Numbered from the stretch's first letter, positions 182-27,518 are shown. The stretch is DNA of 64,000 nt from Halarcobacter sp. (GCA_963676565.1 OY781089.1:3008001-3072000); one strand, 5' to 3'. Made by a program: numbers and translations. Notes: generated by a model from the sequence alone, not told the origin.

Positions 182-547
182 TTGAAAAGTTTATTTAGTA
201 ACCTAAAAGAAAAAAATACTTTTATTTTCTTTTTGGTGATATTTGGAATCTTTGCAATTGCATTTGATCCAACTCATAGTGTAGACAAAGTTTTTCTTAC
301 TAACTTTGACAAGATAAAACATATACTTGCATTTGTAGTGATTAGTTACTTTTTTGTAGAAAGTTCTATAAAACTAAAAGTGATATTAAAAATACTGATT
401 TTAGTTTTGATAGCTTTTTTTATAGAGTATGTTCAATTTATGATTGGAAGAGAGGCTTCAGTTTTAGACTTCTTTGCTAGTATTAGTGGAGTTGGAATAT
501 TTTTCCTAGTTAGATTTTTTGTTTTAAAAAATAAATTTACTTTTTAA
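182..547 (+). CDS. VanZ-like membrane protein
   Basis: Hydrophobic 121 aa with DKxxH.xAF and E..Q....R.AS..D motifs; typical of EPS loci. Confidence 0.75.
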   Translation: MKSLFSNLKEKNTFIFFLVIFGIFAIAFDPTHSVDKVFLTNFDKIKHILAFVVISYFFVESSIKLKVILKILILVLIAFFIEYVQFMIGREASVLDFFASISGVGIFFLVRFFVLKNKFTF

Positions 548-1679
548 ATTTATTTTTTAAAACGATATTAAAAGGTCTTATAAGATAATACAAAAAATTT
601 AAACTTTTTGGAAGTTTTATTACTTTGTAATCATACTCTGTAGGATGAAGCATTGATTTTAGATATTTCAATCTATATGAAGTGTTTTTCAACATAAACC
701 ATTGAACAGATGAAATCTCTTTTGTATGGATTTTATCTGTATTTTCAAACTCTTTTATAAATCGATAATATATCTTATCTGTATTTTCAATTATTTTTTT
801 ATCACGAGTGTTTAAATTGATATTTAAATTTATAGAAAATACTTTTTCACAGAGTAATATACTAGATAATACAACTCTATCTGCATCTATTTTTTTTGCA
901 AGAGACAATACTTTTTCAAAATCTAAAATCTTTTTTACTATTATCAAGTTTATATCTACTAACCATTCTAGTCTTTCCCACATATGTTTATATCCATGAA
1001 TACAAAGATAGATAAAGTGAATTTCATTTGATAAGATATTTACTTCAGAATTTTTTAGTTTATATTTTTGACTAACAAAATAGTTTAATTTTTCTAAGTC
1101 CATAAAAAACTCAGCACTAGACAATGTCCAGTGTGCTTCTATGAGTATATTATTTATTTTATTCAAAAAACTTCTGTCATGTACTATATCAACTAATTTT
1201 TCTTTTTGATACTCTTCTAAATCAAAAACTTCTTCGTAATTTTCTTCAGCTAAAAGTTTTCCTAATCTATTGATATCCTTTAAGCTTACCAAAATATCTA
1301 AATCAACATATTGCCTTAGTGTTATATCATCATATGCCATTTGTGATAGAACAGGCCCTTTGAAAGCTATAGCATTTATACCATTTTCTTCCAAAAGTTT
1401 TGTAACTTTTATAAGTTCAGATGTCATAAGCATGTTTTGCTTAGCTATGTCCATATTGATTAATTTTAATCTTCTAAAAATATCTTCAGGTATAAACTCT
1501 TTAAAATTTTTGATGCTATTGTAGACTAATGGAAAAACTCCATGTTTATAAGAAAGTTCTATAAAAATATCCCAATCCTTTATTAAAAGAATCTTTTCTT
1601 TTAGTAAGTTCTGCTTTGGAATTATTTTACATGATTCTATTATTAATTCTACGTCATTTGATAATTTTTTTAGTTTTAT
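537..1679 (-). CDS. Nucleotidyltransferase family protein (NTP_transf_5-like, type found in lasso-peptide/HPr-kinase-related cassettes); about 380 aa, probable ATA start
   Basis: KG...R...DLDILV and IEAHW motifs; frame stays open 75 codons upstream of the ATG at 1454 and encodes DWDIFIELSYKHGVFPLVY; AAAGG SD-like sequence just upstream of ATA at 1679; in-frame stop at 1710-1712. Confidence 0.8.
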   Translation of the reverse strand: MKLKKLSNDVELIIESCKIIPKQNLLKEKILLIKDWDIFIELSYKHGVFPLVYNSIKNFKEFIPEDIFRRLKLINMDIAKQNMLMTSELIKVTKLLEENGINAIAFKGPVLSQMAYDDITLRQYVDLDILVSLKDINRLGKLLAEENYEEVFDLEEYQKEKLVDIVHDRSFLNKINNILIEAHWTLSSAEFFMDLEKLNYFVSQKYKLKNSEVNILSNEIHFIYLCIHGYKHMWERLEWLVDINLIIVKKILDFEKVLSLAKKIDADRVVLSSILLCEKVFSINLNINLNTRDKKIIENTDKIYYRFIKEFENTDKIHTKEISSVQWFMLKNTSYRLKYLKSMLHPTEYDYKVIKLPKSLNFLYYLIRPFNIVLKNKFKK

Positions 1680-1856
1680 TTTTTTGCCTTTGAAAAATCT
1701 AATTAGATACTATCAAATTATATTAAAAAATAAAATAAAAACTCAAAAACTTACTAATAAAAAATATACAGATTTATTACCTTATTGTAATACTTTTAAG
1801 ATATACTTCCATCTTATTTAAGTATAATACGCAAAATTATTAAAAAGGTAAACTAA

Positions 1857-3002
1857 ATGGCAGAACAGAAAGTAGCACTAATAACAGGAATCACAGGACA
1901 AGATGGTTCATATTTAGCTGAATTTCTTCTAAAAAAAGGTTATATAGTACATGGTATCAAAAGAAGATCTTCTATGTTCAACACAGATAGAATTGATCAC
2001 TTATATGAAGATCCACATGTAGAAAATAGAAACTTAGTATTACACTATGGTGATATGACTGACTCTATGAATATAACAAGAATCATCCAAGAGACTCAAC
2101 CTGATGAAATCTATAACTTAGCTGCGATGTCTCATGTTGCTGTATCTTTTGAAACTCCAGAATATGTAGCAAATGCAGATGGTACAGGAACACTAAGAAT
2201 CTTAGAAGCAGTTAGATTCTTAGGACTTGAAAAGAAAACAAAAATCTATCAAGCAAGTACATCTGAACTATATGGTAAAGTTCAAGAAACACCTCAAAGT
2301 GAAACAACTCCTTTTTATCCAAGATCACCTTATGCAGTTGCAAAGATGTATGCATATTGGATTACTGTAAACTATAGAGAAGCATATGATATGTTTGCTT
2401 GTAATGGTATTTTATTTAACCATGAGTCTCCTGTTAGAGGTGAAACATTTGTAACTAGAAAGATTACAAGAGCAGCTTCAAAGATTGCTTTAGGATTACA
2501 AGAAAAACTATATCTTGGAAACCTTGATGCAAAAAGAGACTGGGGACATGCAAAAGACTATGTTAGAATGATGTGGATGATTTTACAAGCAGAACAACCA
2601 GAAGATTGGGTTATAGCAACTGGACAAACAACTACTGTAAGAGACTTTGTGAAATTTGCCTTTGAATATGCAGGTATAAACCTAAGATTTGAAAATGAAG
2701 GTGTAGATGAAGTTGGTATAATAGATAACTTTGATGAAGCAAAAGCAAAAGAATCAGGAATCGATTTATCTCACTTAAGTATCAATCAAACAGTTGTAGG
2801 TGTAGATCCAAGATACTTTAGACCAACAGAAGTTGACTTACTTCTTGGAGATCCAAGTAAAGCAGAAAAGAAACTTGGATGGAATAGAGAATATAACTTA
2901 CAAGAGTTAGTTGATGATATGATGAAATCAGACCTTAAACTTATGACAAAAGACACTTATCTAAAAGATGGTGGTTATAAGATTATGAATTATTTTGAAT
3001 AG
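1857..3002 (+). CDS. gmd: GDP-mannose 4,6-dehydratase
   Basis: [42 protein letters not shown] motifs. Confidence 0.97.
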
Positions 3003-3014
3003 TAGTAATTAGTT

Positions 3015-3023
3015 TGCTATAAT
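3015..3023 (+). promoter_or_regulatory. Extended -10 promoter (TGcTATAAT) of the toxin-antitoxin pair
   Basis: TGCTATAAT, followed by AGGAG SD and ATG at 3042. Confidence 0.6.
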
Positions 3024-3041
3024 TGTTATCAGGAGTTAAAA

Positions 3042-3236
3042 ATGAGTTTAGATGAAATAAAAAAATTAGATGTAAAAGATAGAATCATTTTAATGAATGA
3101 AATCTGGGCTACTTTAGAAGAAGAAGATAGTAATATTGAATCTCCATCTTGGCACAAAGAAGTTTTAGAAGAAAGACTTCAAAAACTTGATAACAATAAA
3201 GCAGAATTTATCTCACTTGAAGACTTAAAAGCTTAA
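3042..3236 (+). CDS. Putative addiction-module antitoxin
   Basis: 64 aa with L...R..L...IW..L and P.W..E.LEER pattern; overlaps the downstream RelE/ParE-like gene (TAATG). Confidence 0.8.
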   Translation: MSLDEIKKLDVKDRIILMNEIWATLEEEDSNIESPSWHKEVLEERLQKLDNNKAEFISLEDLKA

Positions 3237-3559
3237 TGAATATAAAAAACATAATAGCTTTAAAAGAAGTTTCAAATGATTTGAAATTAGGCGAAGAATT
3301 TTATGAAAAACAAAATCATGGATTGGGTTCATACTTTAAAGATAGCATAATATCTGACATAGAGTCTTTATGGCTTTATGGAGGAATTCATCAAAAAGTA
3401 TTTGGTTTGTATCGATTGCTTTCTAAAAGATTTCCGTATGGAATTTATTATGTCATCAAAGATGAAACAGTTATAGTAGTAGCTATTCTTGATTTAAGAC
3501 AAAACCCTAAAAAAATTTCTTCATATTTAAATAATAGAAATACTAAAAAAGAATATTGA
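3236..3559 (+). CDS. Type II toxin, RelE/ParE family
   Basis: DL....[26 protein letters not shown] motifs. Confidence 0.8.
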
Positions 3560-3560
3560 A

Positions 3561-4610
3561 ATGAACAAAGATAGTAAAATATATATAGCAGGACACAGAG
3601 GATTAGTTGGTTCTGCTATTGTTAAAAACTTAGAATCAAAGGGTTATACAAATCTTGTATATAAAACTCATAAAGAACTAGACCTAACTTCACAAGTAGA
3701 AGTAGCTAAGTTTTTTGAAGATGAAAAACCAGAATATGTAATACTAGCAGCTGCTAAAGTTGGTGGTATAGTTGCAAACAATACATATAGAGGTGAATTT
3801 ATATATGAGAATCTTGCTATTCAAAACAATGTAATCCACCAATCATATGTAAATGGTGTAAAAAAATTATTGTTTTTAGGTAGTACTTGTATCTATCCAA
3901 AAGAAGCACCACAACCTATGCCAGAAAATTGCCTTTTAACTTCACCCTTAGAATATACAAATGAGCCATATGCAATAGCTAAAATTGCAGGTATAAAAAT
4001 GTGTGAATCATATAACTTACAATATGCTACAAACTTTATATCTGTAATGCCAACAAATCTATATGGACCAAATGACAACTTTGATTTAGAAAAATCTCAT
4101 GTGTTGCCAGCACTTATTAGAAAAATTCATTGTGCTAAGCTTTTATATGAAGGGAGAGAAGACGAAGTTGCAAAAGAGTTAGGTATTGAAAATATTGATG
4201 ATGCAAAAGAGTATTTAGAAGGTTTTGGAGTAGATGCCTCTTCAGTTGAAATTTGGGGAACAGGAAAACCAAGACGAGAGTTTTTATATAGTGAAGATAT
4301 GGCTGATGCTTGTGTATTTTTATTAGAAAATAGAGACTTTAGTGATACCTATGAAAAAGACTCAAAAGAAGTAAGAAATACCCATATCAATATTGGAACT
4401 GGTGTAGATATATCAATCAAAGAACTGGCAGAGCTTATACAAAAAATTATTGGTTTTGAAGGTGAATTAAAATTTAATATCAATAAACCAGATGGTACAA
4501 TGGTTAAATTAACTGATCCGTCTAAATTACACAGTTTAGGATGGAAACACAAAGTTGAACTTGAAGATGGTATTAAAACTATGTATGAGTGGTATTTAAA
4601 TAATAAATAA
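3561..4610 (+). CDS. fcl: GDP-L-fucose synthase
   Basis: [38 protein letters not shown] motifs. Confidence 0.96.
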
Positions 4611-4611
4611 A

Positions 4612-5073
4612 ATGTTTTTAGATAAAGAAACTTTTAGTACAATTATTGCAAATGCACCACTTATCTCTATTGATTTAATAATCAAAAATAGCGAAGATAA
4701 AGTTCTACTAGGTAAAAGAATAAACAAACCAGCAAAAAACAGTTGGTTTGTTCCTGGTGGAAGAGTTTTCAAAGATGAAAAAATAGATGATGCTTTTAAA
4801 AGAATCACACAAAATGAGATTGGTGTTGAATACAATATCAAAAGTGCTTCTTTTAAAGGTATATATCAACACTTTTATGATGACAATGTTTTTGGTGATG
4901 ATTTTTCTACCCATTATATTGTGTTAAGTTTTGAACTTAGAATTACAAATACACCTATGACAAATAATCAACATGAAAATTATAGATGGTTTGAAGAAGA
5001 TGAACTAATGAAAAGTGATGATGTATACTTTTTTGTAAAAGACTATTTTGATAAAGATAAGGGGATTAGATGA
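4612..5073 (+). CDS. gmm: GDP-mannose mannosyl hydrolase (Nudix)
   Basis: PLISIDLI, WFVPGGRV.KDE variant Nudix box, HFYDDN, THYIVL; lies between fcl and manC. Confidence 0.9.
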   Translation: MFLDKETFSTIIANAPLISIDLIIKNSEDKVLLGKRINKPAKNSWFVPGGRVFKDEKIDDAFKRITQNEIGVEYNIKSASFKGIYQHFYDDNVFGDDFSTHYIVLSFELRITNTPMTNNQHENYRWFEEDELMKSDDVYFFVKDYFDKDKGIR

Positions 5074-6440
5074 CTAATATAATACTATGTGGAGGTAGTG
5101 GAACAAGATTATGGCCAATAAGTAGAACACTTATGCCAAAACAATTTGTAAAATTGTTTGATGAAAAATCTTTATTTCAATTAACTGTTCAAAGAAATTC
5201 AAAAGTTTGTAATAGTCAATTTATAGTTTCAAATGCTGAACAATATTTTCTTTCTGTTGATCAATTAGAAGAATTAAAAAAAGAGAATAATAAATACCTT
5301 CTTGAACCTGTTGGAAGAAATACTGCCCCTGCTATTGCTTTGGCTTGTATGGAGTTAGATTCTGAGGAGATAGTATTAGTAACACCAAGTGATCATCTAA
5401 TTAAAGATGAAGAAGAGTATTCAAAAGTTTTAGAAAAAGCAAAAGAATTAGCACTTGAAGATAATCTAGTAACTTTTGGTATTACTCCAACATTTGCTGA
5501 AACTGGATTTGGATACATAGAAAGTGAAAATGAATATGATGTAAAAGCTTTCCATGAAAAACCTGACTTTGAAACAGCAACTTCGTATTTAAAAGCTGGA
5601 AACTATTATTGGAATAGTGGTATGTTTATGTTTAAAGCTGGAGTATTTTTAGAGGAATTAAAAAAATATTCTCCTGAGATATTTGATACTAGTAAAGATG
5701 CTTTAACAAACTCTTCTAAAGATGATATTACAAGAATAAAATATGATGATATGATGAAAATCCCTGAAGATAGTATCGATTATGCAGTTATGGAAAAATC
5801 TTCAAAAGTAAAAGTTGTTCCATCTAATATTAATTGGTCAGATGTAGGAAGTTTTGATTCTTTATATGAAGAACTTCCAAAAGATGAAAATGGAAATACC
5901 TTAAATAAAAATCATGTGTCAATAGATAGTAAAAACAATCTAATCTATGGAAAACAAAGAAAAATTGCAACTGTTGATATTGAAGATTGTATTATAGTTG
6001 ATACTGGAGATGCTTTACTTATATCTAAAAAGGGAAGCTCACAAAAGGTTAAAAAAGTAGTTGCAGAAGTTAGAAAAACAACAGAACTACACAATATTCA
6101 CTTAACTGGCTATAGACCATGGGGTTCATATACAGTTTTAGAAGATACTCCTGGATATAAAATCAAAAGAATTGATGTAAAACCAGGGAAAAGACTAAGC
6201 TTACAAAAACATTTCCATAGAAATGAACACTGGATTGTCGTAAGTGGAACTGCTACAGTTACAGTTGGTGAAGAAACAAAACTAGTAAGACCAAATGAAT
6301 CTATTTATATAAAAATGGGTGAATTACATAGACTAGCAAATGAAGGGAAAATTCCTGTAGTACTTATAGAAGCACAAGTTGGCGAGTATACAGGTGAAGA
6401 TGATATCGTAAGAATTGATGATGATTTTAAAAGGGATTAA
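5070..6440 (+). CDS. manC: Mannose-1-phosphate guanylyltransferase / mannose-6-phosphate isomerase
   Basis: ILCGGSGTRLWP.SR, EPVGRNTAPA, C-terminal cupin RPWG...SLQKH.HR.EHW. Confidence 0.95.
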   Translation: MTNIILCGGSGTRLWPISRTLMPKQFVKLFDEKSLFQLTVQRNSKVCNSQFIVSNAEQYFLSVDQLEELKKENNKYLLEPVGRNTAPAIALACMELDSEEIVLVTPSDHLIKDEEEYSKVLEKAKELALEDNLVTFGITPTFAETGFGYIESENEYDVKAFHEKPDFETATSYLKAGNYYWNSGMFMFKAGVFLEELKKYSPEIFDTSKDALTNSSKDDITRIKYDDMMKIPEDSIDYAVMEKSSKVKVVPSNINWSDVGSFDSLYEELPKDENGNTLNKNHVSIDSKNNLIYGKQRKIATVDIEDCIIVDTGDALLISKKGSSQKVKKVVAEVRKTTELHNIHLTGYRPWGSYTVLEDTPGYKIKRIDVKPGKRLSLQKHFHRNEHWIVVSGTATVTVGEETKLVRPNESIYIKMGELHRLANEGKIPVVLIEAQVGEYTGEDDIVRIDDDFKRD

Positions 6441-7856
6441 ATGAAAACTATAAAAGAAGTTATTACTCAAAGTGATGTTAAATTTGGGACTAGTGGAGCA
6501 AGAGGTTTAGTTACTGAATTCACAACTGAAGTATGTACAGCTTTTACTATCTCTTTTTTAGATGCCATGAAAAAAAGCTTTGAGTTTAAAAAAATTGCAG
6601 TTGCAATGGATAATCGTCCAAGCAGTCCTGAAATAAGTTCTATAATTTGTGGGGCTATAAAAGCCTATGGTTATGAAGTAGATTTTTATGGAGTGATTCC
6701 TACTCCAGCATTAGCCCTACAAGCTATGGCAGATAAAATACCATCTATTATGATAACAGGAAGTCATATCCCCTTTGATAGAAATGGTATCAAGTTTTAT
6801 AGACCAGATGGTGAGATATCAAAAGATGATGAAATAGCTATTTTAAATAATACCAACCAAATAGTTGATGTCAATAGTTATTTACCAAAAGTAGAAGACA
6901 CTGCAGCAACAAATTATATTAACAGATACGCAAACTATTTTGGGGAAAACTGCTTAGATGGTCTTAAAATTGGTATTTATGAACACTCAAGTGCAGGTAG
7001 AAATTTGTATTCAAAACTTTTTACAAATTTAGGTGCAGAGGTCATTTCTCTTGGAAGATCTGATGAGTTTATACCAATAGACACAGAAGCAGTTTCAGAT
7101 GAAGATAAACAAAGAGGAAAAGACTGGTCAAAAGAATATAACTTTGATACTATTTTTTCTACAGATGGAGATGGAGATAGACCATTAATTGCTGATGAAA
7201 ATGGTGACTGGTTAAGAGGTGATATTGTTGGTTTAATGACTTCCAATATCCTTGGGGTTAAAGCTTTAGCTGTGCCTGTTAGTTGTAATACAGCTATTGA
7301 AAAAAGTGGCTTTTTTGAAAAAGTAAAAAGAACAAAAATTGGATCACCTTATGTTATAGAAGCCTTTGAAGAGTTAAATACTTACAAATCAATTGCAGGG
7401 TTTGAAGCAAATGGTGGTTTTCTATTAGGTTCAGCACTTGAACAAAATGGAACTATTTTAGATGCATTACCAACTAGGGATGCCCTGCTTCCATTTATAG
7501 TATTAGCTAGTTTTACAGTAAAAGAAAAGACAAGACTTTCTAAACTTATTGAAAATTTACCAAAACGTTTTACATCAAGTGATAGAATTCAAAATTTTCC
7601 AAGAGAAAAGAGTATTAAACTTATAAATAAAGGTGTAGAAAATCCAAATAACCTATTAGAAATGTTAGGTTTTGAAAATCTAAAAATAGTAGACATAAAT
7701 CAAATTGATGGATTGAGACTGACATTTGATAATGATGTAATCATACATCTAAGACCTTCTGGTAATGCACCAGAGTTACGTTGTTATGTAGAAACTAATA
7801 ATCAAGATACTTCAGATAAGCTAGTAAAACAAACCTTAACTTCAATTTCACAATAA
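6441..7856 (+). CDS. manB: Phosphomannomutase
   Basis: KFGTSGARG, ITGSHIP, TDGDGDRP, HLRPSGNAPE motifs. Confidence 0.93.
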   Translation: MKTIKEVITQSDVKFGTSGARGLVTEFTTEVCTAFTISFLDAMKKSFEFKKIAVAMDNRPSSPEISSIICGAIKAYGYEVDFYGVIPTPALALQAMADKIPSIMITGSHIPFDRNGIKFYRPDGEISKDDEIAILNNTNQIVDVNSYLPKVEDTAATNYINRYANYFGENCLDGLKIGIYEHSSAGRNLYSKLFTNLGAEVISLGRSDEFIPIDTEAVSDEDKQRGKDWSKEYNFDTIFSTDGDGDRPLIADENGDWLRGDIVGLMTSNILGVKALAVPVSCNTAIEKSGFFEKVKRTKIGSPYVIEAFEELNTYKSIAGFEANGGFLLGSALEQNGTILDALPTRDALLPFIVLASFTVKEKTRLSKLIENLPKRFTSSDRIQNFPREKSIKLINKGVENPNNLLEMLGFENLKIVDINQIDGLRLTFDNDVIIHLRPSGNAPELRCYVETNNQDTSDKLVKQTLTSISQ

Positions 7857-7859
7857 AAA

Positions 7860-7880
7860 AGAACCCATATTTTGGGTTCT
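7860..7880. terminator. Hairpin between convergent manB and PqqD genes (probable terminator)
   Basis: AGAACCCA-tattt-TGGGTTCT, preceded by an A-tract. Confidence 0.65.
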
Positions 7881-7886
7881 AAAGTG

Positions 7887-8159
7887 TTATGAGATAGTAA
7901 TCAAACCTTTGTTTGCTACTTCTTGAATAAAATTTAAAATATCATTTTCAACTTGTTTTTCATCCACCTCATAATTTGAGATTATCTCTTCTTTTACTTT
8001 ATTTAAATCTTTTTTTTCTTCTAAAGTTTCCCAAATAAAAGTTCCAATCTCATTTATAGAAAAATACTCATTGGTATTACTATCAAGTAAAATTGTTTCA
8101 TCATCTACTTTTTGTAAAAAAAGTGTATCTGGTATATTTATTTTTGTATCTAGTGTCAT
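7887..8159 (-). CDS. PqqD-family / RiPP recognition element (RRE) protein
   Basis: 90 aa; ETILLD...EYFSINEIGTFIWETL...Y.VDEKQVENDILNFIQE...GLI is the stand-alone PqqD/lasso-B1 pattern. Confidence 0.9.
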   Translation of the reverse strand: MTLDTKINIPDTLFLQKVDDETILLDSNTNEYFSINEIGTFIWETLEEKKDLNKVKEEIISNYEVDEKQVENDILNFIQEVANKGLITIS

Positions 8160-8162
8160 ATT

Positions 8163-9020
8163 TTATATTACCTTTTTATTTTTTATAAATTTTACAATAG
8201 CTTGATAAACCTCTTCAAGTCTATTTAAATCCCAAGGAATAGTTATATCATATATATCTACTTTATTTGCTATATTTGTCAAAGCTTTAAATCTTTGTTT
8301 TTTATGAATAGGCAAATCTATTTCTGTGGAATATCTTATAATCTTAAATTTATCAATTCCTAAAGTTTGTGAAACTTTTATTTCACATAGCGGATCAGAT
8401 TTTATTAAATTTAATATACAATTAATTGGTTTAGATTCTTCTGCAAAATTCTCTACAAATAATCCTAAATCTTCCATTTTACGATAAGGTCTATGATATG
8501 GATATGAAGGTACAGAAAAAATCATATTATCTTTTTCAAAAGTTGCTACTTTATCATCAGATATCATAGTATGACCTTTTTTTATAAAGAAATCTGTTAA
8601 GGTAGATTTTCCACCAAATGAATTTGCTACAAACAAAACTGAGGTATCTTCAATCTCCACAGCCCCGGCATGTAAGAAATAATACTTGTTTTCAAAGGTA
8701 AGTAGTATGGGGAAATAGGTATGTTTCAACCAATAGTCTACTAATTTATCTGTAGTTCCATCCGCTTTTGAGTATGTTATTAGATTAGAGTTGATTTTAC
8801 TTGAAAAAGTAACAACATCTCTAACTGTGAAACTTATTATTTGATTAGATTCTATTCTAGAGAAAGGTTTTTCACTTTGAATAAAAACTTCTCTAAGCTG
8901 ATTATTGTGAAGTTCTATCTTATAATTGAGTTTATTAGTAGAAGTTTGTTCTTCTACTAATGTGTATCTATTAGGACTCTGTTTTTTATTTATTTCTAAA
9001 TGGTATCCAAATAAATACAT
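8163..9020 (-). CDS. HPr-kinase-related kinase (lasso-peptide-kinase-like)
   Basis: LHAGAV...variant Walker A (ANSFGGKSTL)...ISDD signature of the HprK C-terminal fold. Confidence 0.8.
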   Translation of the reverse strand: MYLFGYHLEINKKQSPNRYTLVEEQTSTNKLNYKIELHNNQLREVFIQSEKPFSRIESNQIISFTVRDVVTFSSKINSNLITYSKADGTTDKLVDYWLKHTYFPILLTFENKYYFLHAGAVEIEDTSVLFVANSFGGKSTLTDFFIKKGHTMISDDKVATFEKDNMIFSVPSYPYHRPYRKMEDLGLFVENFAEESKPINCILNLIKSDPLCEIKVSQTLGIDKFKIIRYSTEIDLPIHKKQRFKALTNIANKVDIYDITIPWDLNRLEEVYQAIVKFIKNKKVI

Positions 9021-9042
9021 TAATACTTTTTACTATATGTTA

Positions 9043-9264
9043 CTAGTTAAATGAACTTCTTCTTATTCCACCTCTATCATCATTTGATGGATCAGTACCA
9101 GGTCCAGTTACTGAAGTAGAAGTATCTCTATTTACAGTATTACTTGCTGCTGCTGATGTAGGGATTGTCATTGAACCTAAAGCAACTATTGCAGGTGCTG
9201 CATATGCTGCTTTTTTTAGGAAACTTCTTCTGCTGTTTTTATTTTCTTCTACAATTTTATCCAT
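9043..9264 (-). CDS. Putative RiPP-like precursor peptide with twin-arginine signal and lasso-type leader motif
   Basis: 73 aa; SRRSFLK, YAAPAIVALGSMTIPT, SAAA|S, Ser/Thr-rich tail; GGAG SD at 9273-9276; first gene before kinase and PqqD. Confidence 0.75.
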   Translation of the reverse strand: MDKIVEENKNSRRSFLKKAAYAAPAIVALGSMTIPTSAAASNTVNRDTSTSVTGPGTDPSNDDRGGIRRSSFN

Positions 9265-9294
9265 TTTATATTCTCCAAAATTTTTTATAATGGC

Positions 9295-9303
9295 ATTATA
9301 ACA
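9295..9303 (-). promoter_or_regulatory. Extended -10 promoter (TGtTATAAT) of the peptide-kinase-PqqD operon
   Basis: Plus-strand ATTATAACA reads TGTTATAAT on the minus strand, about 30 nt upstream of the peptide ATG. Confidence 0.65.
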
Positions 9304-9386: not shown

Positions 9387-9476
9387 TTAAAATTTTAGCT
9401 ATTTTTTAGACAGTTTTATTTGATATTTAATAACTCATTGTGTTATGATAACAAAAAAATTTATAAAAGGATGTTT

Positions 9477-10277
9477 ATGGGGTTAAAGATAAAATCTATT
9501 TTTACTTTCTCTATTCTAATTGCTTTATTCAGTGGTTGTAGTCTAAAAGATTATAAACTTTTCCAAGAAGGTAATCTAGATATTGAAGAAACTACTGTTG
9601 TTGAAAAAGAAGAATATTATCAAGAAATGGCATTTGAGAATATAATCGCTCCAAATGATAGAGTTGATGTTACAGTTTATATTCAAGCTGGTCAAGGTAG
9701 TCAACAAATGACTTCGATTCTTACTAGTAGAGATGTAAACAATAGTAATACAATTCAAGAAAACATTGGATTACTTGTTACTAGAAAAGGAAGTGTTAGA
9801 CTTCCATTACTTGGAAGTGTAAATATTGCAGGGCTAACGCAAGATGAAGCTTCTAATTATCTAATTAAAGAATACAAAAAATTTATCAGAAACCCATATG
9901 TAATCGTTGAAATCAAAAACCAAAGAGTTATCGTAATAGGTGAAGTAAAATCGCCAGGTATCGTTCCAGTTACAAATGGTACAATGAATGTAATTGAAGC
10001 TATTGCAAGGACTGGTGACTTAACAGATATGGCATCTAGAAACAATATCAAAGTTATTAGAGGTGATTTAAGAAATCCTAAAGTTAGAACTATTAACCTT
10101 ACAAGAATGGATGAATTATCTGTTTCAAGTTTATACTTAAAACCAAACGATATATTATATGTACAACCTAGAAATCTTAAAGGTTATAATAGAGCATTTA
10201 ATGATATCAACCCATTTTGGAATATGTTATCTAGTATCCTAGATCCACTAAACCAAAGAAAAACTCTTATAGAATAG
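9477..10277 (+). CDS. wza: Polysaccharide export outer-membrane lipoprotein (Wza family)
   Basis: Lipobox LFSGC; G.V.LPLLG.V...GLT Poly_export motif and SLBB domain; start placed at ATG 9477 after AAGGA SD. Confidence 0.88.
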   Translation: MGLKIKSIFTFSILIALFSGCSLKDYKLFQEGNLDIEETTVVEKEEYYQEMAFENIIAPNDRVDVTVYIQAGQGSQQMTSILTSRDVNNSNTIQENIGLLVTRKGSVRLPLLGSVNIAGLTQDEASNYLIKEYKKFIRNPYVIVEIKNQRVIVIGEVKSPGIVPVTNGTMNVIEAIARTGDLTDMASRNNIKVIRGDLRNPKVRTINLTRMDELSVSSLYLKPNDILYVQPRNLKGYNRAFNDINPFWNMLSSILDPLNQRKTLIE

Positions 10278-10294
10278 TATAAGGGTTATCATTA

Positions 10295-12652
10295 ATGGAA
10301 CAAAATAAATATATACAACATACAAATGATGAAATAGATTTAAAACAAGTATTTAAAACCATTCTTAAATACAAGTTTTTTATCTTTTTTACGATTTTAA
10401 TATTTACTATAGGTTCAGCTGTATTTGCTTATGTTAAGCCAAATATCTATTCTTCTTCTGCAACTATTGAAGTAAAAGAGGAAGAAAGAGGTTGGAACAC
10501 AAGTTCAGCACTAAAAGAAGCATTTAGTGGAACTGGAGTTAATATAGAAAATCAAATTGAAGTTTTTAAATCAAAGTTTTTAGCTGATAGAGCAGCTAGT
10601 TACTTAAATCTTGGGACAAGATATTTTACAAAAAATAACTATAGAACATATGAGTTCTATCAAAATTCTCCTTTTGTTGCTACAAAAGAGTTTATAGATG
10701 ATGAATTCTACAATAAAACTTTTTATATACAACCTTTATCAAAAGATACTTTTAAACTAATTATTAAACCTAGTAACAAATGGTCAAAGTCTGGGATTTT
10801 AGATCTATTAGGTGTTAGAAAATTTGAGGACATAGATCTTTTTAAGTATGAAAAAATCCATAAATATAATGAAGAGATAAAAACACAATGGTTTAATATA
10901 AAAATTCAAAAGATTAGTGAACTAGAAGAAAGTGAATATTCTTTTTATTTTGTTCATGAGTCTTCATTTGTAGACTACTACTATAATTTATCAATTGAGC
11001 AAGTTTCTGAATTTGCGAGTGTATTAAGACTTTCTATTTTAGATACTGTTTCAACTAGAGCAAAAGATCTTTTAAATGCTATGTTAAAGGCATATAGAGA
11101 TCAAGAAAGAGAAAGAAAAAATGAAACAGCAAACTTATCTTTAGACTTTATTGATTCTCAACTTGAAGAGATAAATAAAAGACTTAAGGCTTCAGAGGGA
11201 AAACTTGAAGAGTATAAAGAGACTAACGAAGTAATTGATTTATCACAAAAAGCAAAAATGACTTCAGAAAAATTAACTGATTATGAAAGTAAACTTCAAG
11301 AGATATCAATAGAACAAAATATCTTAAAAAATTTACAACAATATATCAATAAAAATCACAATTTATCTGGTCTAGCAGTTGGATCAATAAGCTTTGCTGA
11401 TCCTTCATTATCAAATATGGTTAAAAACTTAACCGAGTTATCAAATCAAAGAGATAACTTACTTATTGATTATACAGAGTTACACCCTGATATTGTAAAA
11501 CTTAGTCAATCAATTGCAACACTAAGAAGAAATATTAAAACTGTTTTAAGTAATAACTTAAATCAAATAGCACAAAGAAAAGCTTCTTTAGAATCTTTGA
11601 TTAGACAATATACAAAATCTTTAGAAACACTTCCTCAACAAGAAAAAGAGCTAACAAGACTTACAAGATATTTTTCTGTAAATGAAAAAGTATATTCATA
11701 TTTACTTGAAAAAAGAGCTGAAACAGCTATCTTAAAATCATCTACAATCTCTAATTCAAGAGTATTGGATGAAGCATTAAATTACCCTATTCCTGTTAAA
11801 CCAAAAAGAATGTTAATAGTTTTAGTTGGTATGATATTAGGTGGAATTGTTGGTATTGCTTACGCATTTTTAAGAGAGTTTTTAAATGATACAGTTAAAA
11901 ATACAGAGGAAATTGAAAGATATAGTTCAATTCCAATTTATGGTGTTGTTCCTCTTAATAAAAACAAAAAAACAAAAAATATCTTCCTTGAATCATTTAG
12001 GTCAATTAGAACAAACTTACAGTTCTTGCCACAAACAGAATCAAGTAGAGTTATTACAGTAACTTCTTCTGTATCAGGAGAAGGGAAAACAACTGTTGTT
12101 GCAAAAATTGCTGAAATAATAGGTCAAACAAATAAAAAGGTTGTTGTTTTAGATATAGATATGAGAAAAGCTAGTGTTCATAAAGAGTTTGATGTAGATA
12201 ATGTTATAGGATTAAGTAATTATCTAACTGGACAAAATACACTAAAAGATGTAATCTCTAAAACAGAGTCTGAAAATGTTGATTTAATTACTACAGGGCC
12301 TCTTCCTCCAAATCCTTCAGAATTGATTTTATTAGATAACATGAAAACCTTAATTGAAGATTTAAAAGAGGAATATGATTATATTATTATAGATACGCCA
12401 CCTGTTGGTCTTGTAACAGATGCACTTATTCTTATGAACTATGCAGATATTTCATTTGTATTAGTTAGAGCTGATTACACGAGAAAAGAGTTTATCAAAA
12501 ACCTTGATAGACTAGCGCGTGAACACTCACACAATCATATTGGTATGATTTTAAATGGTGTTGAAATTGGTGAAAAATATGGATACGGTTATGGTGTAAG
12601 TTATGGATATGGTTACGGAAATGACAAATATTATAAAGATAGACCTAGTTAA
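10295..12652 (+). CDS. wzc: Polysaccharide co-polymerase / BY tyrosine kinase
   Basis: DEIDL N-terminus, two TM segments, ESFRSIRTNL, Walker A GEGKT, DIDMRK, IIDTPP, C-terminal tyrosine cluster YGYGYGVSYGYGY. Confidence 0.93.
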   Translation: MEQNKYIQHTNDEIDLKQVFKTILKYKFFIFFTILIFTIGSAVFAYVKPNIYSSSATIEVKEEERGWNTSSALKEAFSGTGVNIENQIEVFKSKFLADRAASYLNLGTRYFTKNNYRTYEFYQNSPFVATKEFIDDEFYNKTFYIQPLSKDTFKLIIKPSNKWSKSGILDLLGVRKFEDIDLFKYEKIHKYNEEIKTQWFNIKIQKISELEESEYSFYFVHESSFVDYYYNLSIEQVSEFASVLRLSILDTVSTRAKDLLNAMLKAYRDQERERKNETANLSLDFIDSQLEEINKRLKASEGKLEEYKETNEVIDLSQKAKMTSEKLTDYESKLQEISIEQNILKNLQQYINKNHNLSGLAVGSISFADPSLSNMVKNLTELSNQRDNLLIDYTELHPDIVKLSQSIATLRRNIKTVLSNNLNQIAQRKASLESLIRQYTKSLETLPQQEKELTRLTRYFSVNEKVYSYLLEKRAETAILKSSTISNSRVLDEALNYPIPVKPKRMLIVLVGMILGGIVGIAYAFLREFLNDTVKNTEEIERYSSIPIYGVVPLNKNKKTKNIFLESFRSIRTNLQFLPQTESSRVITVTSSVSGEGKTTVVAKIAEIIGQTNKKVVVLDIDMRKASVHKEFDVDNVIGLSNYLTGQNTLKDVISKTESENVDLITTGPLPPNPSELILLDNMKTLIEDLKEEYDYIIIDTPPVGLVTDALILMNYADISFVLVRADYTRKEFIKNLDRLAREHSHNHIGMILNGVEIGEKYGYGYGVSYGYGYGNDKYYKDRPS

Positions 12653-12662
12653 TAGGTCTTCT

Positions 12663-13415
12663 TTATACTAACTTATAATTTTTAATTCTATTATTTTCAA
12701 ATAATTTGTGAGTTTCTTTTGCAAAAACTGCTTTGCTAAATGAATCTAAATACTTCTCTCCATGTATATCACTACCAACAAAATCAATAAGTCCATTGTC
12801 AGATAAATATTTTGCAGCAGCTTTTGGTTTTTTACCATAAAAACCAATTAAAGAATTGAGATTTATTTGAAACCTAACACCACTTTGTTTTAATTTATCA
12901 TATTTTGAGAAGTTTGATGAAAAATATGAATATCTCTCAGGATGAGCTAAAATAGGTCTATACCCTTTTGAAAGTAAATTAAAGATAGTTTGCTCTAAGC
13001 CAAAGGGTTTATTTGTATAAGAAAGTTCAAATAAAACGTATTTGTCTTTTCCAAAATATAATAAGTCATCATTTTCAATAAGTTCTAAAAAATTTTCATC
13101 AAAATAGTACTCTGCAGAAGCAATAAGTTCTATATCTATATTTCTATTTTTTAGTTCTTGTTTAAGTTTTTCACAACCATCTAGAATAATCTCTTTTGTA
13201 TTTGGAAATCTATGGGCCATAATATGTGGAGTTGTGATAATCTTATTAAATCCAAGTTTTTTTATACCTTGGATAATTTGTATTGATTCATCTAAAGTTT
13301 TTACACCATCATCAATCCCAGGGATTAGATGAGAGTGTAAATCTGTGGTATAGAATTCAGGTTTATAGTCTTTTGATTTTTTTTCAAAAATTGAACTAAA
13401 AAGTTTTTTAACCAA
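12663..13415 (-). CDS. CpsB/CapC-type PHP-family protein-tyrosine phosphatase
   Basis: DLHSHLIPGIDDG, TPH, AHPERY, GSD.H motifs; adjacent to wzc. Confidence 0.9.
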   Translation of the reverse strand: MVKKLFSSIFEKKSKDYKPEFYTTDLHSHLIPGIDDGVKTLDESIQIIQGIKKLGFNKIITTPHIMAHRFPNTKEIILDGCEKLKQELKNRNIDIELIASAEYYFDENFLELIENDDLLYFGKDKYVLFELSYTNKPFGLEQTIFNLLSKGYRPILAHPERYSYFSSNFSKYDKLKQSGVRFQINLNSLIGFYGKKPKAAAKYLSDNGLIDFVGSDIHGEKYLDSFSKAVFAKETHKLFENNRIKNYKLV

Positions 13416-13459: not shown

Positions 13460-16400
13460 TTAAATTACTGTAATATCCTGATCAATAAGAAGTTTTAAAG
13501 TTTGATTACTACTATCAGTATAAGTATATTCTTCATAACCGTCTGCTGTTGGTGTTGAATTACCCCAAATAGTTGAATCTAATGCAATTTTATCTGAACT
13601 ATCTCCATCTATTTTTAATTCATTATCATCTGAGATTGCTAAGAAGTTATCAATTGAAAGATTTGATAATATATGCATTCCATCTTCAGTTAAATCAATT
13701 GATTCTACTTTTGCACCACTAGCAGATTCTAAAATTTCTAACATATTATATAATCCTGCATCACTTGAAGAAATATCTCCTAAAGTTACTGAATTATTAG
13801 AAATTGAAACTCCTGGATTCTCTCCATTAATATCTAATGTTACTTCTTCTACATTACTTTGGTTCCCATCTGGGTCTGTTACTAGTACATTAAATTTTGC
13901 TGTTATACTTTCACCTAAATCTAATCCATCTACTTCTTCTGAGTATACATACAAGTCACCCTTTTGCGCTCCAAATTTTGTTACTAAATCTGCAAAGTCA
14001 CCATCTAAATCTGCTTGTGTTAATTGAATTACACCATTTGTTGTTGAACTTGTTATATCTCCTGTTTCATCTGCAAAGCTTGAACTATCTCTTACTAATG
14101 ACAATCCAAATTCACTATCCTCTGCATCTTCTACTCCTAACATTGCTAGTAATGCTGATGCTGATATTACTGTCTCATAGTTTGACACTGGTCCATAATC
14201 TGCAAATGATGTCTCATTTATTGTGATTGTTGGTGCTACTGTGATTACTGGTGCTTCATCTACTCCATTAATATCTAATGTTACTTCTTCTACATTACTT
14301 TGGTTTCCATCTGGGTCTGTTACTAGTACATTAAATTTTGCTGTTATACTTTCACCTAAATTTAATCCATCTACTTCTTCTGAGTATACATACAAGTCAC
14401 CCTTTTGCGCTCCAAATTTTGTTACTAAATCTGCAAAGTCACCATCTAAATCTGCTTGTGTTAATTGAATTACACCATTTGTTGTTGAACTTGTTATATC
14501 TCCTGTTTCATCTGCAAAGCTTGAACTATCTCTTACTAATGACAATCCAAATTCACTATCCTCTGCATCTTCTACTCCTAACATTGCTAGTAATGCTGAT
14601 GCTGATATTACTGTCTCATAGTTTGACACTGGTCCATAATCTGCAAATGATGTCTCATTTATTGTGATTGTTGGTGCTACTGTGATTACTGGTGCTTCAT
14701 CTACTCCATTAATATCTAATGTTACTTCTTCTACATTACTTTGGTTTCCATCTGGGTCTGTTACTAGTACATTAAATTTTGCTGTTATACTTTCACCTAA
14801 ATTTAATCCATCTACTTCTTCTGAGTATACATACAAGTCACCCTTTTGCGCTCCAAATTTTGTTACTAAATCTGCAAAGTCACCATCTAAATCTGCTTGT
14901 GTTAATTGAATTACACCATTTGTTGTTGAACTTGTTATATCTCCTGTTTCATCTGCAAAGCTTGAACTATCTCTTACTAATGACAATCCAAATTCACTAT
15001 CCTCTGCATCTTCTACTCCTAACATTGCTAGTAATGCTGATGCTGATATTACTGTCTCATAGTTTGACACTGGTCCATAATCTGCAAATGATGTCTCATT
15101 TATTGTGATTGTTGGTGCTACTGTGATTACTGGTGCTTCATCTACTCCATTAATATCTAATGTTACTTCTTCTACATTACTTTGGTTTCCATCTGGGTCT
15201 GTTACTAGTACATTAAATTTTGCTGTTATACTTTCACCTAAATTTAATCCATCTACTTCTTCTGAGTATACATACAAGTCACCCTTTTGCGCTCCAAATT
15301 TTGTTACTAAATCTGCAAAGTCACCATCTAAATCTGCTTGTGTTAATTGAATTACACCATTTGTTGTTGAACTTGTTATATCTCCTGTTTCATCTGCAAA
15401 GCTTGAACTATCTCTTACTAATGACAATCCAAATTCACTATCCTCTGCATCTTCTACTCCTAACATTGCTAGTAATGCTGATGCTGATATTACTGTCTCA
15501 TAGTTTGACACTGGTCCATAATCTGCAAATGATGTCTCATTTATTGTGATTGTTGGTGCTACTGTGATTACTGGTGCTTCATCTACTCCATTAATATCTA
15601 ATGTTACTTCTTCTACATTACTTTGGTTTCCATCTGGGTCTGTTACTAGTACATTAAATTTTGCTGTTATACTTTCACCTAAATTTAATCCATCTACTTC
15701 TTCTGAGTATACATACAAGTCACCCTTTTGCGCTCCAAATTTTGTTACTAAATCTGCAAAGTCACCATCTAAATCTGCTTGTGTTAATTGAATTACACCA
15801 TTTGTTGTTGAACTTGTTATATCTCCTGTTTCATCTGCAAAGCTTGAACTATCTCTTACTAATGACAATCCAAATTCACTATCCTCTGCATCTTCTACTC
15901 CTAACATTGCTAGTAATGCTGATGCTGATATTACTGTCTCATAGTTTGACACTGGTCCATAATCTGCAAATGATGTCTCATTTATTGTGATTGTTGGTGC
16001 TACTGTGATTACTGGTGCTTCATTACCACCATTTACTGTTAATGATATAGTTGATGAATCTACTAATATACCATCTGATACTTGATAATCAAAATTTATT
16101 TCTAGTTTTTCATTTGGTGTTAATAAATTAAAATATGGACTATTTAAAGTATATGTACCATCACTTTGCACATCTATACTTAAAACATTATTTGTCTGTA
16201 AAAGATCAACATATTTTTCACTTATAACACCCTCAATAGTAAGCTTTCCTGTTGTCAAATCAATATTAACTGGAGCTAAATTATTTAAATAAGTTATTGC
16301 ATCATTTATTGTTGTTGTAGGATCTAAAAGATAGGCTTCAATCTCTTGTAACTTTTGACTATCATCAATTACTGCTGATACTAAAGGATTACTTACAAGT

Positions 16401-26105: not shown

Positions 26106-27518
<1,413 letters not shown>

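Follow-up and report, generated by a model that had tools for sequence, protein, structure and literature searches.

We analyzed a 64,000-nucleotide stretch of DNA from Halarcobacter sp. (GCA_963676565.1, OY781089.1:3008001-3072000), hereafter the window, which is part of a complete low-GC genome of 3.34 Mb (99.97% complete). An earlier note on this sequence had described four minus-strand genes, encoding a short peptide, an HprK-like kinase, a PqqD protein and a nucleotidyltransferase (NTase), and had placed them in an exopolysaccharide (EPS) locus. We found all four genes with the boundaries it had assigned (Table 1), and they do lie inside a Wzx/Wzy/Wza/Wzc polysaccharide locus. The PqqD protein is a discrete RRE, the recognition element of RiPPs, peptides made by the ribosome and modified after translation. 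We read the four genes as a biosynthetic cluster whose product is a ribosomal peptide that is linear, phosphorylated and probably decorated further. On this view, it is the Campylobacterota counterpart to the clusters for linear polyphosphorylated peptides (LPPs) in Bacillota, and its leader is a twin-arginine translocation (Tat) signal. We put the probability of this reading at roughly 0.6.

The peptide gene is preceded by a Shine-Dalgarno sequence and, 31 nt upstream of its ATG, by an extended -10 element, TGTTATAAT, which was read directly from the sequence. A consensus promoter scan, which requires a -35 hexamer, did not list this element, and the number of promoters returned by the scan was not above that of shuffled sequences (10 vs 12.5). 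An intrinsic terminator follows the RRE gene; the terminator scan found two such sites, compared with 0.3 expected. This terminator would close a peptide-kinase-RRE operon. Four oligo-dT RNA runs, whose species label is shared with a DNA source of the stretch, gave 0 reads, which is no test of expression.

The peptide carries features of a Tat signal and of an RRE-binding leader in the same N-terminal segment. The n-region reads S11-R-R-S-F-L-K-K and is followed by an h-region with Y21-A-A-P24-A-I26, then by P35 and by A38-A-A40; the uncharged stretch spans A19 to A40. S-R-R-S-F-L-K fits the Tat consensus, and the order of n-region, weakly hydrophobic h-region, helix breaker and AxA is present. 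Y-x-x-P-x-I is the motif bound by lasso-type RREs. The TIGR01409 model (TAT_signal_seq) matched the window peptide with 18.2 bits, compared with a cut-off of 16.7. This suggested that the leader is a Tat signal with a predicted signal peptidase I site at A38-A-A40, and that it also contains the RRE-binding YxxP. The core begins with SNTVNRD, ends with RRSSFN and is rich in Ser, Thr, Asn, Asp and Gly. Reading the core by eye, we found no D/E-x-N-x-S/T N-glycosylation sequon.

These leader features were found to be conserved across the peptide family. Leader statistics were based on 72 distinct motif-bearing peptides, with the leader tyrosine (Y21 in the window) counted as position 1. Three jackhmmer hits without the full motif were left out: one fragment from the start of a contig that has a single R, one truncated piece and one lasso-like peptide. 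RR was present in all 72 sequences and Y1 and P4 were invariant; in the peptide alignment, R12, R13, Y21 and P24 of the window peptide were likewise invariant. L9 was found in 65/72, G10 in 70/72 and P15 in 57/72, so that positions 9-15 read LGx(L/I)TxP. Position 18 was A, S or V in 63 sequences, position 20 was A or G in 69, and the c-region position 14 was K or R in 33. Column entropy was low in the leader columns and exceeded 2.8 bits from position 21 onward. The leader pattern of the family reads SRRxFLKKxxYxxPx(I/L)xxLG…P…AxA, and is followed by a variable core of 4-111 aa that is rich in Gly, Asn, Ser, Pro and Thr and contains Ser in 69 of the 72 peptides. A search of 1.84 billion proteins with the family profile returned 743 representative clusters at E<=1e-3. 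The best 150 of these representatives were all 46-141 aa long and included 144 new sequences, of which 143 had the RR…YxxP motif (first residue of the RRE motif Y in 142 and W in 1) and 136 had an AxA-like site. The only name that we saw on record for a family member was 'twin-arginine translocation signal domain-containing protein'.

Substitutions in the leader concentrate at the third codon position (variability 0.26/0.17/0.44 at positions 1/2/3). This coding-type pattern, together with the retention of the peptide beside the kinase in 5/5 close orthologous loci, argues that the open reading frame (ORF) is not a chance one. One peptide of this family is encoded in the genome, at this locus. 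Elsewhere in the family, a subfamily of cores was found to share the motif NGWGNGDxxAPGNS…NNAEN (L054:10361-10810, L056:10304-10759, L036, L040, L044 and L051, where L-numbers denote related loci), and in Sulfuricurvum clusters the NTase is followed by a second precursor, which is Asn/Gly-rich and ~150 aa long.

The related loci, 65 in total, came from a scan of 185,579 species genomes, and their ORFs were sorted by iterative profile searches (G000 denotes the genome of the window and L085 the region of G000 upstream of the window). A small ORF was located upstream of the kinase in each of the five close orthologous loci, and in two of them the NTase directly follows the RRE. The conserved RRxFL/YxxP ORF that the earlier note had expected beside kinase homologues turned up no more than 400 bp from the kinase in 38 of the 65 loci; 35 of these also have an RRE and 15 an NTase. 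In six more loci the peptide was farther from the kinase. Among the remaining 21, 15 contained a B2 peptidase and/or a cyclase, and the rest were short contigs or contained none of these genes. The order peptide-kinase-RRE-NTase was contiguous in L021, L023, L054-L056 and L060, and kinase, RRE and NTase were contiguous with a divergent peptide gene in L036, L040, L044, L045 and L051.

We found that the loci can be grouped into three types. Type A, the type of the window, consists of peptide, kinase, RRE and NTase and was observed in 15 loci from Arcobacteraceae, Sulfuricurvum and other Sulfurimonadaceae; wza/wzc adjoin it in 10 of the 15. Type B contains genes for a large LamG-domain protein, a ~237-aa lipoprotein, the peptide, the kinase and the RRE, with no NTase. 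It was identified in 21 loci (e.g. L046, L052, L058, L069, L067 and L078), mostly from Sulfurovum, and also in Methyloprofundus and in a Thermodesulfobacteriota metagenome-assembled genome. The type B LamG protein is 700-800 aa long, the lipoprotein had no Pfam match, and the Sulfurovum RRE gene lies just before rsmG (gidB). The third type, with the order ABC-B2-kinase-cyclase (ABC, ATP-binding cassette), is the lasso type of Sulfurovum and relatives. From lasso loci, ~13 candidate precursors were picked by eye. These have [Y/W]xxPx[L/I] and a Thr near the cut, and they lack RR, a hydrophobic stretch and an AxA site. The peptide family is found mainly in Campylobacterota, and also in Methylococcaceae and Thermodesulfobacteriota.

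The closest solved relative of the RRE in the PDB was the lasso RRE TbiB1 (E 4.3e-13), followed by PbaB1 (1.7e-8) and LppB (1e-5). D73 of the RRE was invariant in 32/32 sequences and occupies, in the alignment, the position of TbiB1 D70 and PbaB1 Q79. An Asp at that position (LppB D70) has been reported to hydrogen-bond the leader tyrosine (PMC13381572). Prediction of the RRE-leader complex gave an ipSAE of 0.50, compared with 0.02 for the best of 3 controls, with at least 95% of contacts in agreement between runs and a partner pLDDT of at least 54. The verdict was 'weak support'. In the calibration, the pass mark was reached by 116 of 157 solved complexes and by 2 of 215 mismatched pairs, and scores of 0.60 or below occurred in only 18 of the 157 solved complexes and in both passing mismatches. 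The pass may also reflect memory, as similar complexes have already been solved. A second PqqD gene of the genome (G000:102728) is located in a pqqB-C-D-E operon (G000:C1:101593-104705) and is unrelated; the operon adjoins a 593-aa gene whose product was taken, from its position only, for a quinoprotein dehydrogenase. In Sulfurovum, the RRE beside rsmG (gidB) was nearly the same with a lasso or a Tat-leader cluster adjacent, as judged from a quick tree of a short protein (pairs compared: L037 vs L064, L066 vs L081), and both cluster classes occur together in L048, L053 and L083. A single Sulfurovum RRE may therefore work with both classes of peptide, contrary to the discrimination that was reported from Bacillota.

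The kinase profile matched the HprK structure 2qmh of the PDB at E 2.9e-5. In an alignment of 19 kinase homologues, H117, the P-loop G136-G-K-S-T140 and D155-D156 were invariant. The AlphaFold model (pLDDT 90.9) had HPr kinase/phosphatase as its top Foldseek matches (E 1.8e-7), followed by phosphoenolpyruvate carboxykinases. A single kinase of this type is encoded in the genome, and such kinases were present in 8/61 genomes of relatives, including that of the window. The kinase grouped with kinases of Campylobacterota lasso clusters in a 37-row clade (support 97/97) and is 46% identical to the kinase of the lasso cluster L042. The congener G017 has three distant kinase paralogues (L017, L018 and L019) in lasso-like settings with sulfotransferase-like neighbours, and small ORFs beside these paralogues end in Ser (e.g. 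L019:3106-3261 and L017:2393-2512).

The NTase is the only NTP_transf_5 copy in the genome. K107-G108, D126-x-D128 and E181-x-H183, a Pol-beta-type signature, were invariant in the orthologues. A sequence search of the PDB returned 0 matches at E<=1, and a fold search returned generic Pol-beta NTases at E>=6e-4 (MenT1, ANT(2'')-Ia and LnuA, with FKRP lower). The model resembles small-molecule and tRNA nucleotidyltransferases weakly, with nothing specific on the substrate. There is no ATG, GTG or TTG between the upstream stop codon and the M at 1454. The segment encoded upstream of 1454 can be aligned to every orthologue and contains the invariant residues G47, P50 and L51, which a start at the first ATG (1454) would remove, so that a non-canonical start upstream is required. 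The codon at 1679-1677 is ATA and is preceded by AAAGG, and ATA with a Shine-Dalgarno sequence was found at the aligned place in L020 (near 15317) and L026 (near 8074), that is, in 3/3 loci with a separated NTase. NTase orthologues contiguous with the RRE begin with ATG, TTG or GTG. ATA is the probable start codon of the NTase, and in the three Arcobacteraceae loci it may be a conserved weak start.

For export and leader removal, the genome contains one TatC (E 1.4e-71) and one LepB-type signal peptidase I (TIGR02227, E 9.2e-40). The SipW-type peptidase model TIGR02228 had 0 matches in this 99.97%-complete genome, while a control search matched 9/14 genomes. Seventeen other ORFs of the genome have an N-terminal RRxF with similar signals and are 149-946 aa long. 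The ORFs scanned, from 18 kb upstream to window position 27500, contained no ABC_tran or ABC_membrane domain, and no peptidase was found in the polysaccharide locus. The lack of a cyclase and of a B2 peptidase that the earlier note had described for the window held for the region upstream and for the genome as a whole. Transglut_core3 (PF13471, the B2 peptidase) had 0 matches in the whole 3.34-Mb genome. Asn_synthase (PF00733) was matched above cut-off by 4 genes, the nearest ~193 kb away and all more than 190 kb from the locus. Neither the window nor the 18 kb upstream contains an Asn synthase, and the upstream region consists of sugar/EPS genes only.

The cluster most resembles the LPP clusters described in May 2026 (Nat Commun) from Paenibacillus alginolyticus and other Bacillota (lppA-K-B-S-D-N). 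According to that report, these clusters encode a precursor, an HprK-like kinase, a discrete RRE, a SipW-like peptidase, an MsbA-like pump and an NTP transferase, without a cyclase, and are often located in capsule loci (PMC13381572). Experiments described there showed that LppK polyphosphorylates the core Ser3 and that the leader is cleaved by a signal-peptidase-type enzyme with the assistance of the RRE (PMC13381572). In Halarcobacter, we likewise found a precursor with a conserved YxxP leader and a variable core (73 aa, within the 35-200 aa of LPP precursors), an HprK-like kinase, a discrete RRE and an NTP transferase in the order precursor-kinase-RRE…NTase, no cyclase, and a setting in a polysaccharide locus. 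In both cases true lasso clusters occur in the same lineage and some clusters have more than one precursor (here L054, L056 and L077). The differences are that this genome has no SipW-like peptidase and this locus no MsbA-like pump, and that the host is a Gram-negative member of the Campylobacterota rather than of the Bacillota. The overall interpretation of the earlier note, in which a linear, Tat-exported peptide binds the RRE and is phosphorylated and then nucleotidylated or glycosylated, gained support on every genomic prediction that it named, and the same gene set in Bacillota is reported to yield linear polyphosphorylated peptides (PMC13381572). LPPs are called restricted to Bacillota in the main text of that report, where the words Tat, twin-arginine, Proteobacteria and Campylobacter are absent; its supplementary tables may list hits outside Bacillota (PMC13381572).

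Other known systems share parts of this design. In paeninodin and pseudomycoidin biosynthesis, an HPr-kinase homologue is reported to phosphorylate a serine of the linear precursor, and an NTP_transf_5-type enzyme to add hexoses to the pseudomycoidin phosphoserine (PMC8498205). These systems also have an HprK-type kinase, an NTP_transf_5 protein and an RRE that reads a [Y/W]xxP leader. However, there is no B2 or macrolactam cyclase here and hence no lasso fold, and the C-terminal serine is not conserved. The kinase-bearing lasso clusters of Sulfurovum (L042, L037 and L031) have a kinase of the same clade and related RREs, but they contain B2, a cyclase and an ABC pump. Tat proofreading chaperones (TorD, DmsD and NapD) hold twin-arginine signals until the cargo is finished. 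In a similar way, a small cytoplasmic protein would here bind the Tat signal of its dedicated cargo before export, although the winged-helix RRE has an unrelated fold and the cargo is a peptide under modification rather than a cofactor enzyme. Housekeeping export signals have also been described as precursor N-termini in the bufferins, whose RiPP leaders are Sec signals (PMC11626156), and in lipoprotein-pathway macrocycles, where lipoprotein signals serve as RiPP leaders (PMC13056109). In those cases the enzymes are different and the signals are of the Sec or lipoprotein type, whereas the signal here is Tat-type and also holds the RRE motif. In the literature, covered as listings and abstracts, no natural RiPP with a Tat-type leader turned up, and searches on HprK-related/HPr-rel-A proteins, PF14907, Campylobacterota lasso peptides and the 2025 RRE survey returned nothing on this system.

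The polysaccharide genes around the cluster form one Wzx/Wzy-type locus that extends from 18 kb upstream to ~13.4 kb in the window (Table 1). The upstream 18 kb contain an epimerase, a UTP-sugar transferase, two ugd copies, an FHA-domain gene, murB-like and murA-like genes and a flippase. Glycosyltransferases, a Wzy_C protein, a WecG-family transferase, an initiating sugar transferase and VanZ are also encoded in the locus. The same wza/wzc/phosphatase neighbours were found in L020-L027. On the opposite strand between RRE and NTase, manC was found in L020, L022, L024 and L026, with or without gmd, fcl and manB; in L025, manC follows the RRE and the contig ends within manC, and in L021 and L023 there is no insert. 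The GDP-mannose/GDP-fucose block is context and a possible donor supply for the NTase.

Table 1 Features of the peptide cluster and of the adjoining polysaccharide genes in the window.
Feature	Position	Strand	Basis or comment
Extended -10 promoter element TGTTATAAT	9295..9303	-	5' of peptide gene; direct sequence reading
Shine-Dalgarno GGAG	9273..9276	-	8 nt before peptide ATG; direct sequence reading
Peptide precursor, 73 aa	9043-9264	-	Stop codon 9043-9045
Leader, residues 1-40	9145..9264	-	Alignment, position statistics, TIGR01409
Predicted core, residues 41-73	9046..9144	-	Column entropy; variation between orthologues
HprK-fold P-loop kinase (LppK/PadeK-like), 285 aa	8163..9020	-	Profile matches, AlphaFold/Foldseek fold
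Discrete PqqD-family RRE, 90 aa	7887..8159	-	Pfam PqqD E 7.1e-18
Intrinsic terminator	7860..7880	-	After RRE gene; 8-bp stem, 4 GC pairs, T-run
NTP_transf_5 nucleotidyltransferase, 380 aa	537..1679	-	Pfam E 4.2e-53
GDP-mannose/GDP-fucose block	1857..7856	+	Wedged between RRE and NTase; Pfam
gmd	1857-3002	+	Pfam
ParD/ParE-like pair	3042-3559	+	Unstab_antitox E 1.5e-14; ParE-like E 0.0086, below cut-off
fcl	3561-4610	+	Pfam
NUDIX gene	4612-5073	+	Pfam
manC	5070-6440	+	Pfam
manB	6441-7856	+	Pfam
Polysaccharide export/regulation genes	9420..13415	mixed	Context; Pfam
wza-like	9420-10277	+	Poly_export/SLBB; divergent from peptide gene
wzc-like BY-kinase	10295-12652	+	Wzz/GNVR/AAA_31
CpsB-type phosphatase	12663-13415	-	CpsB_CapC

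Further observations were made in the polysaccharide locus. At L085:6174-9307, near-duplicate UDP-glucose dehydrogenase genes flank the FHA-domain gene, which encodes 152 aa. FHA domains read phosphothreonine, and the gene could be relevant to a phosphopeptide system. A 1490-aa protein without a Pfam match is encoded at 13460-17932 and contains five 441-bp tandem repeats (13822-16023) that are 99% identical. A second large protein without a Pfam match (1292 aa) is encoded at the far end of the locus (L085:100-3975).

Based on these features, we propose the following pathway. The peptide-kinase-RRE operon, as read from the sequence, would be transcribed from the extended -10 element and end at the terminator. 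The RRE would bind Y21-x-x-P24-x-I26 of the leader, as suggested by homology and the weak complex prediction, and present the peptide to the HprK-fold kinase. By analogy with LppK and the paeninodin kinase, a core serine would then be phosphorylated, perhaps more than once, with S41, directly behind the leader, and S70/S71 as candidate sites. Judging from synteny and from the precedent of pseudomycoidin, the NTase would attach a hexose, a deoxyhexose or a nucleotidyl group to this phosphate; GDP-mannose or GDP-fucose, which the genes between RRE and NTase produce, may serve as its donor. Release from the RRE would expose the twin-arginine signal, TatABC would export the finished peptide and LepB would cut after A38-A-A40, so that Tat and LepB would take the place of the SipW-like peptidase and ABC pump of LPP clusters. 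The 33-aa anionic product might act in the periplasm or at the cell surface, linked to Wza/Wzc polysaccharide export. We infer Tat export from sequence features and gene content and the NTase reaction with its GDP-sugar donor from synteny; the phosphorylation site and the role as EPS anchor, primer or signal are likewise proposed rather than observed.

Several points weigh against this interpretation. The full LPP leader consensus YxxPxVLxHQxIxFETxxS is absent here. Agreement is limited to Y, P, the aliphatic position 6 and, frequently, T16, and the peptides have an RR n-region and AxA instead. For the RRE, TbiB1 is a closer relative than LppB, and the kinase is nearest to those of Campylobacterota lasso clusters, so the system is an LPP analogue and not an orthologue. 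We take it to be an analogous system that was derived from lasso clusters independently, as the grouping of the kinase with local lasso kinases suggests. The sequence matches of the kinase are below curated cut-offs (Hpr_kinase_C 26.6 vs 33.3 bits, E 5e-6), and expression of the NTase from a non-canonical ATA start may be poor. Even in the LPP system, no activity was reported for LppN in a heterologous host, and a partner outside the cluster was suggested to make a rare substrate of the NTase (PMC13381572). Ser occurs within the first five core residues in only 52/72 peptides, so the modified site is not fixed. The EPS link of the cassette is not universal, as L040 and L051 (Sulfurimonadaceae) carry the four genes without polysaccharide genes nearby. 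The RRE motif lies inside the hydrophobic region of the signal, so that a bound peptide may not be export-competent, and the hand-over from RRE to export is conjecture. Finally, TIGR01409 at E<=0.01 matched only 5/35 family members and the formate_TAT model 7/35. This hidden Markov model evidence is thin, and the motif statistics carry the argument for Tat.

We consider it unlikely that the peptide is linear and modified but that its RR leader is only a docking site for RRE and kinase, with export by Sec or an unlinked pump, or an intracellular product, and another protease. The few TIGR01409 matches would fit this, as would the basic residues before [Y/W]xxP in candidate lasso leaders of related loci and the unstructured cores, whereas Tat is best known for folded cargo. 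However, RR is present in every motif-bearing sequence, and the three hits with an incomplete motif include a lasso-like peptide as well as a truncated fragment. The distance to the h-region is constant, P15 and the AxA-type positions 18/20 are conserved, K or R at position 14 is found in 33/72, and the locus has no dedicated pump or peptidase. The position of the cluster inside an EPS locus, divergent from wza and with an FHA-domain gene upstream, raises the possibility that kinase, RRE and NTase target a Wza/Wzc protein or the polysaccharide and that the small ORF is an unrelated secreted neighbour. We give this only a slim chance, as the peptide accompanies kinase and RRE without EPS genes (L040 and L051) and in type B loci, its leader has the RRE-binding motif while the RRE retains the Tyr-binding Asp, and the sole such peptide of the genome is located at this locus.

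The remaining alternatives concern lasso peptides and a named cassette. A decayed, non-functional lasso remnant, left after loss of cyclase and B2, would be consistent with the placement of the kinase among true lasso kinases in the 37-row clade, with its 46% identity to that of L042, and with the missing canonical start codon of the NTase. We rejected it as very improbable. The four genes are intact with invariant catalytic residues, the leader shows coding-type substitution, the same set occurs in at least 15 loci from several families, the ATA with its Shine-Dalgarno sequence is kept in 3/3 loci with a separated NTase, and the leader has gained Tat features that are absent from lasso precursors. 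A cryptic lasso cluster, in which a distant Asn-synthase homologue and an unrecognised leader peptidase still make a lasso peptide, was rejected as well. The leader does match the lasso spacing Y-x2-P-x-I-x3-G-x5-T-x and the genome has 4 Asn_synthase genes, but Transglut_core3 is lacking in a 99.97%-complete genome, the Asn synthases are at least 193 kb away, and a lasso-style cut after T36-S37 would place the first acidic residue, an Asp, at core position 10 and not at 7-9; there is hardly any probability left for it. Just as little remains for membership in the NCBIfam 'HPr-rel-A' cassette (TIGR04352 kinase and TIGR04353 PqqD), a comparison made in the earlier note that did not hold up. It too pairs an HprK-related kinase with a PqqD-family protein, and TIGR04352 is the top NCBIfam match of the kinase, but this match covers only residues 110-168 and reaches 24.4 bits, far below the cut-off of 200 bits. 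TIGR04353 was matched neither by the RRE nor anywhere in the genome, a weak negative as control genomes also had no match.

Taking the linear phosphopeptide reading further, we tentatively propose a joint interpretation, which we hold at somewhat less than even odds. A housekeeping Tat signal would have been recruited as a RiPP leader, and the RRE would both recruit kinase and NTase and hold the peptide back, in the manner of a Tat 'proofreading' chaperone, until it is modified, with TatABC and LepB replacing pump and peptidase. Lasso clusters would then have given rise to linear phosphopeptides twice, the second origin being separate from that of the Bacillota LPPs and represented by a large unnamed family (743 representatives), and the recurrent manC/gmd/fcl insert would point to a GDP-sugar donor. 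If this is true, a GDP-sugar would be the donor that the LPP study could not find for its NTase (PMC13381572).

These findings suggest that the enzymatic logic of LPPs, which had been stated to be confined to Bacillota, also operates in Gram-negative Campylobacterota, with a different export solution. The leader motif provides a simple genome-mining handle for hundreds of small peptides, and GDP-mannose or GDP-fucose would be a concrete candidate donor for the unsolved NTase step. The link to Wza/Wzc that recurs in two phyla makes a role in capsule or biofilm formation testable.

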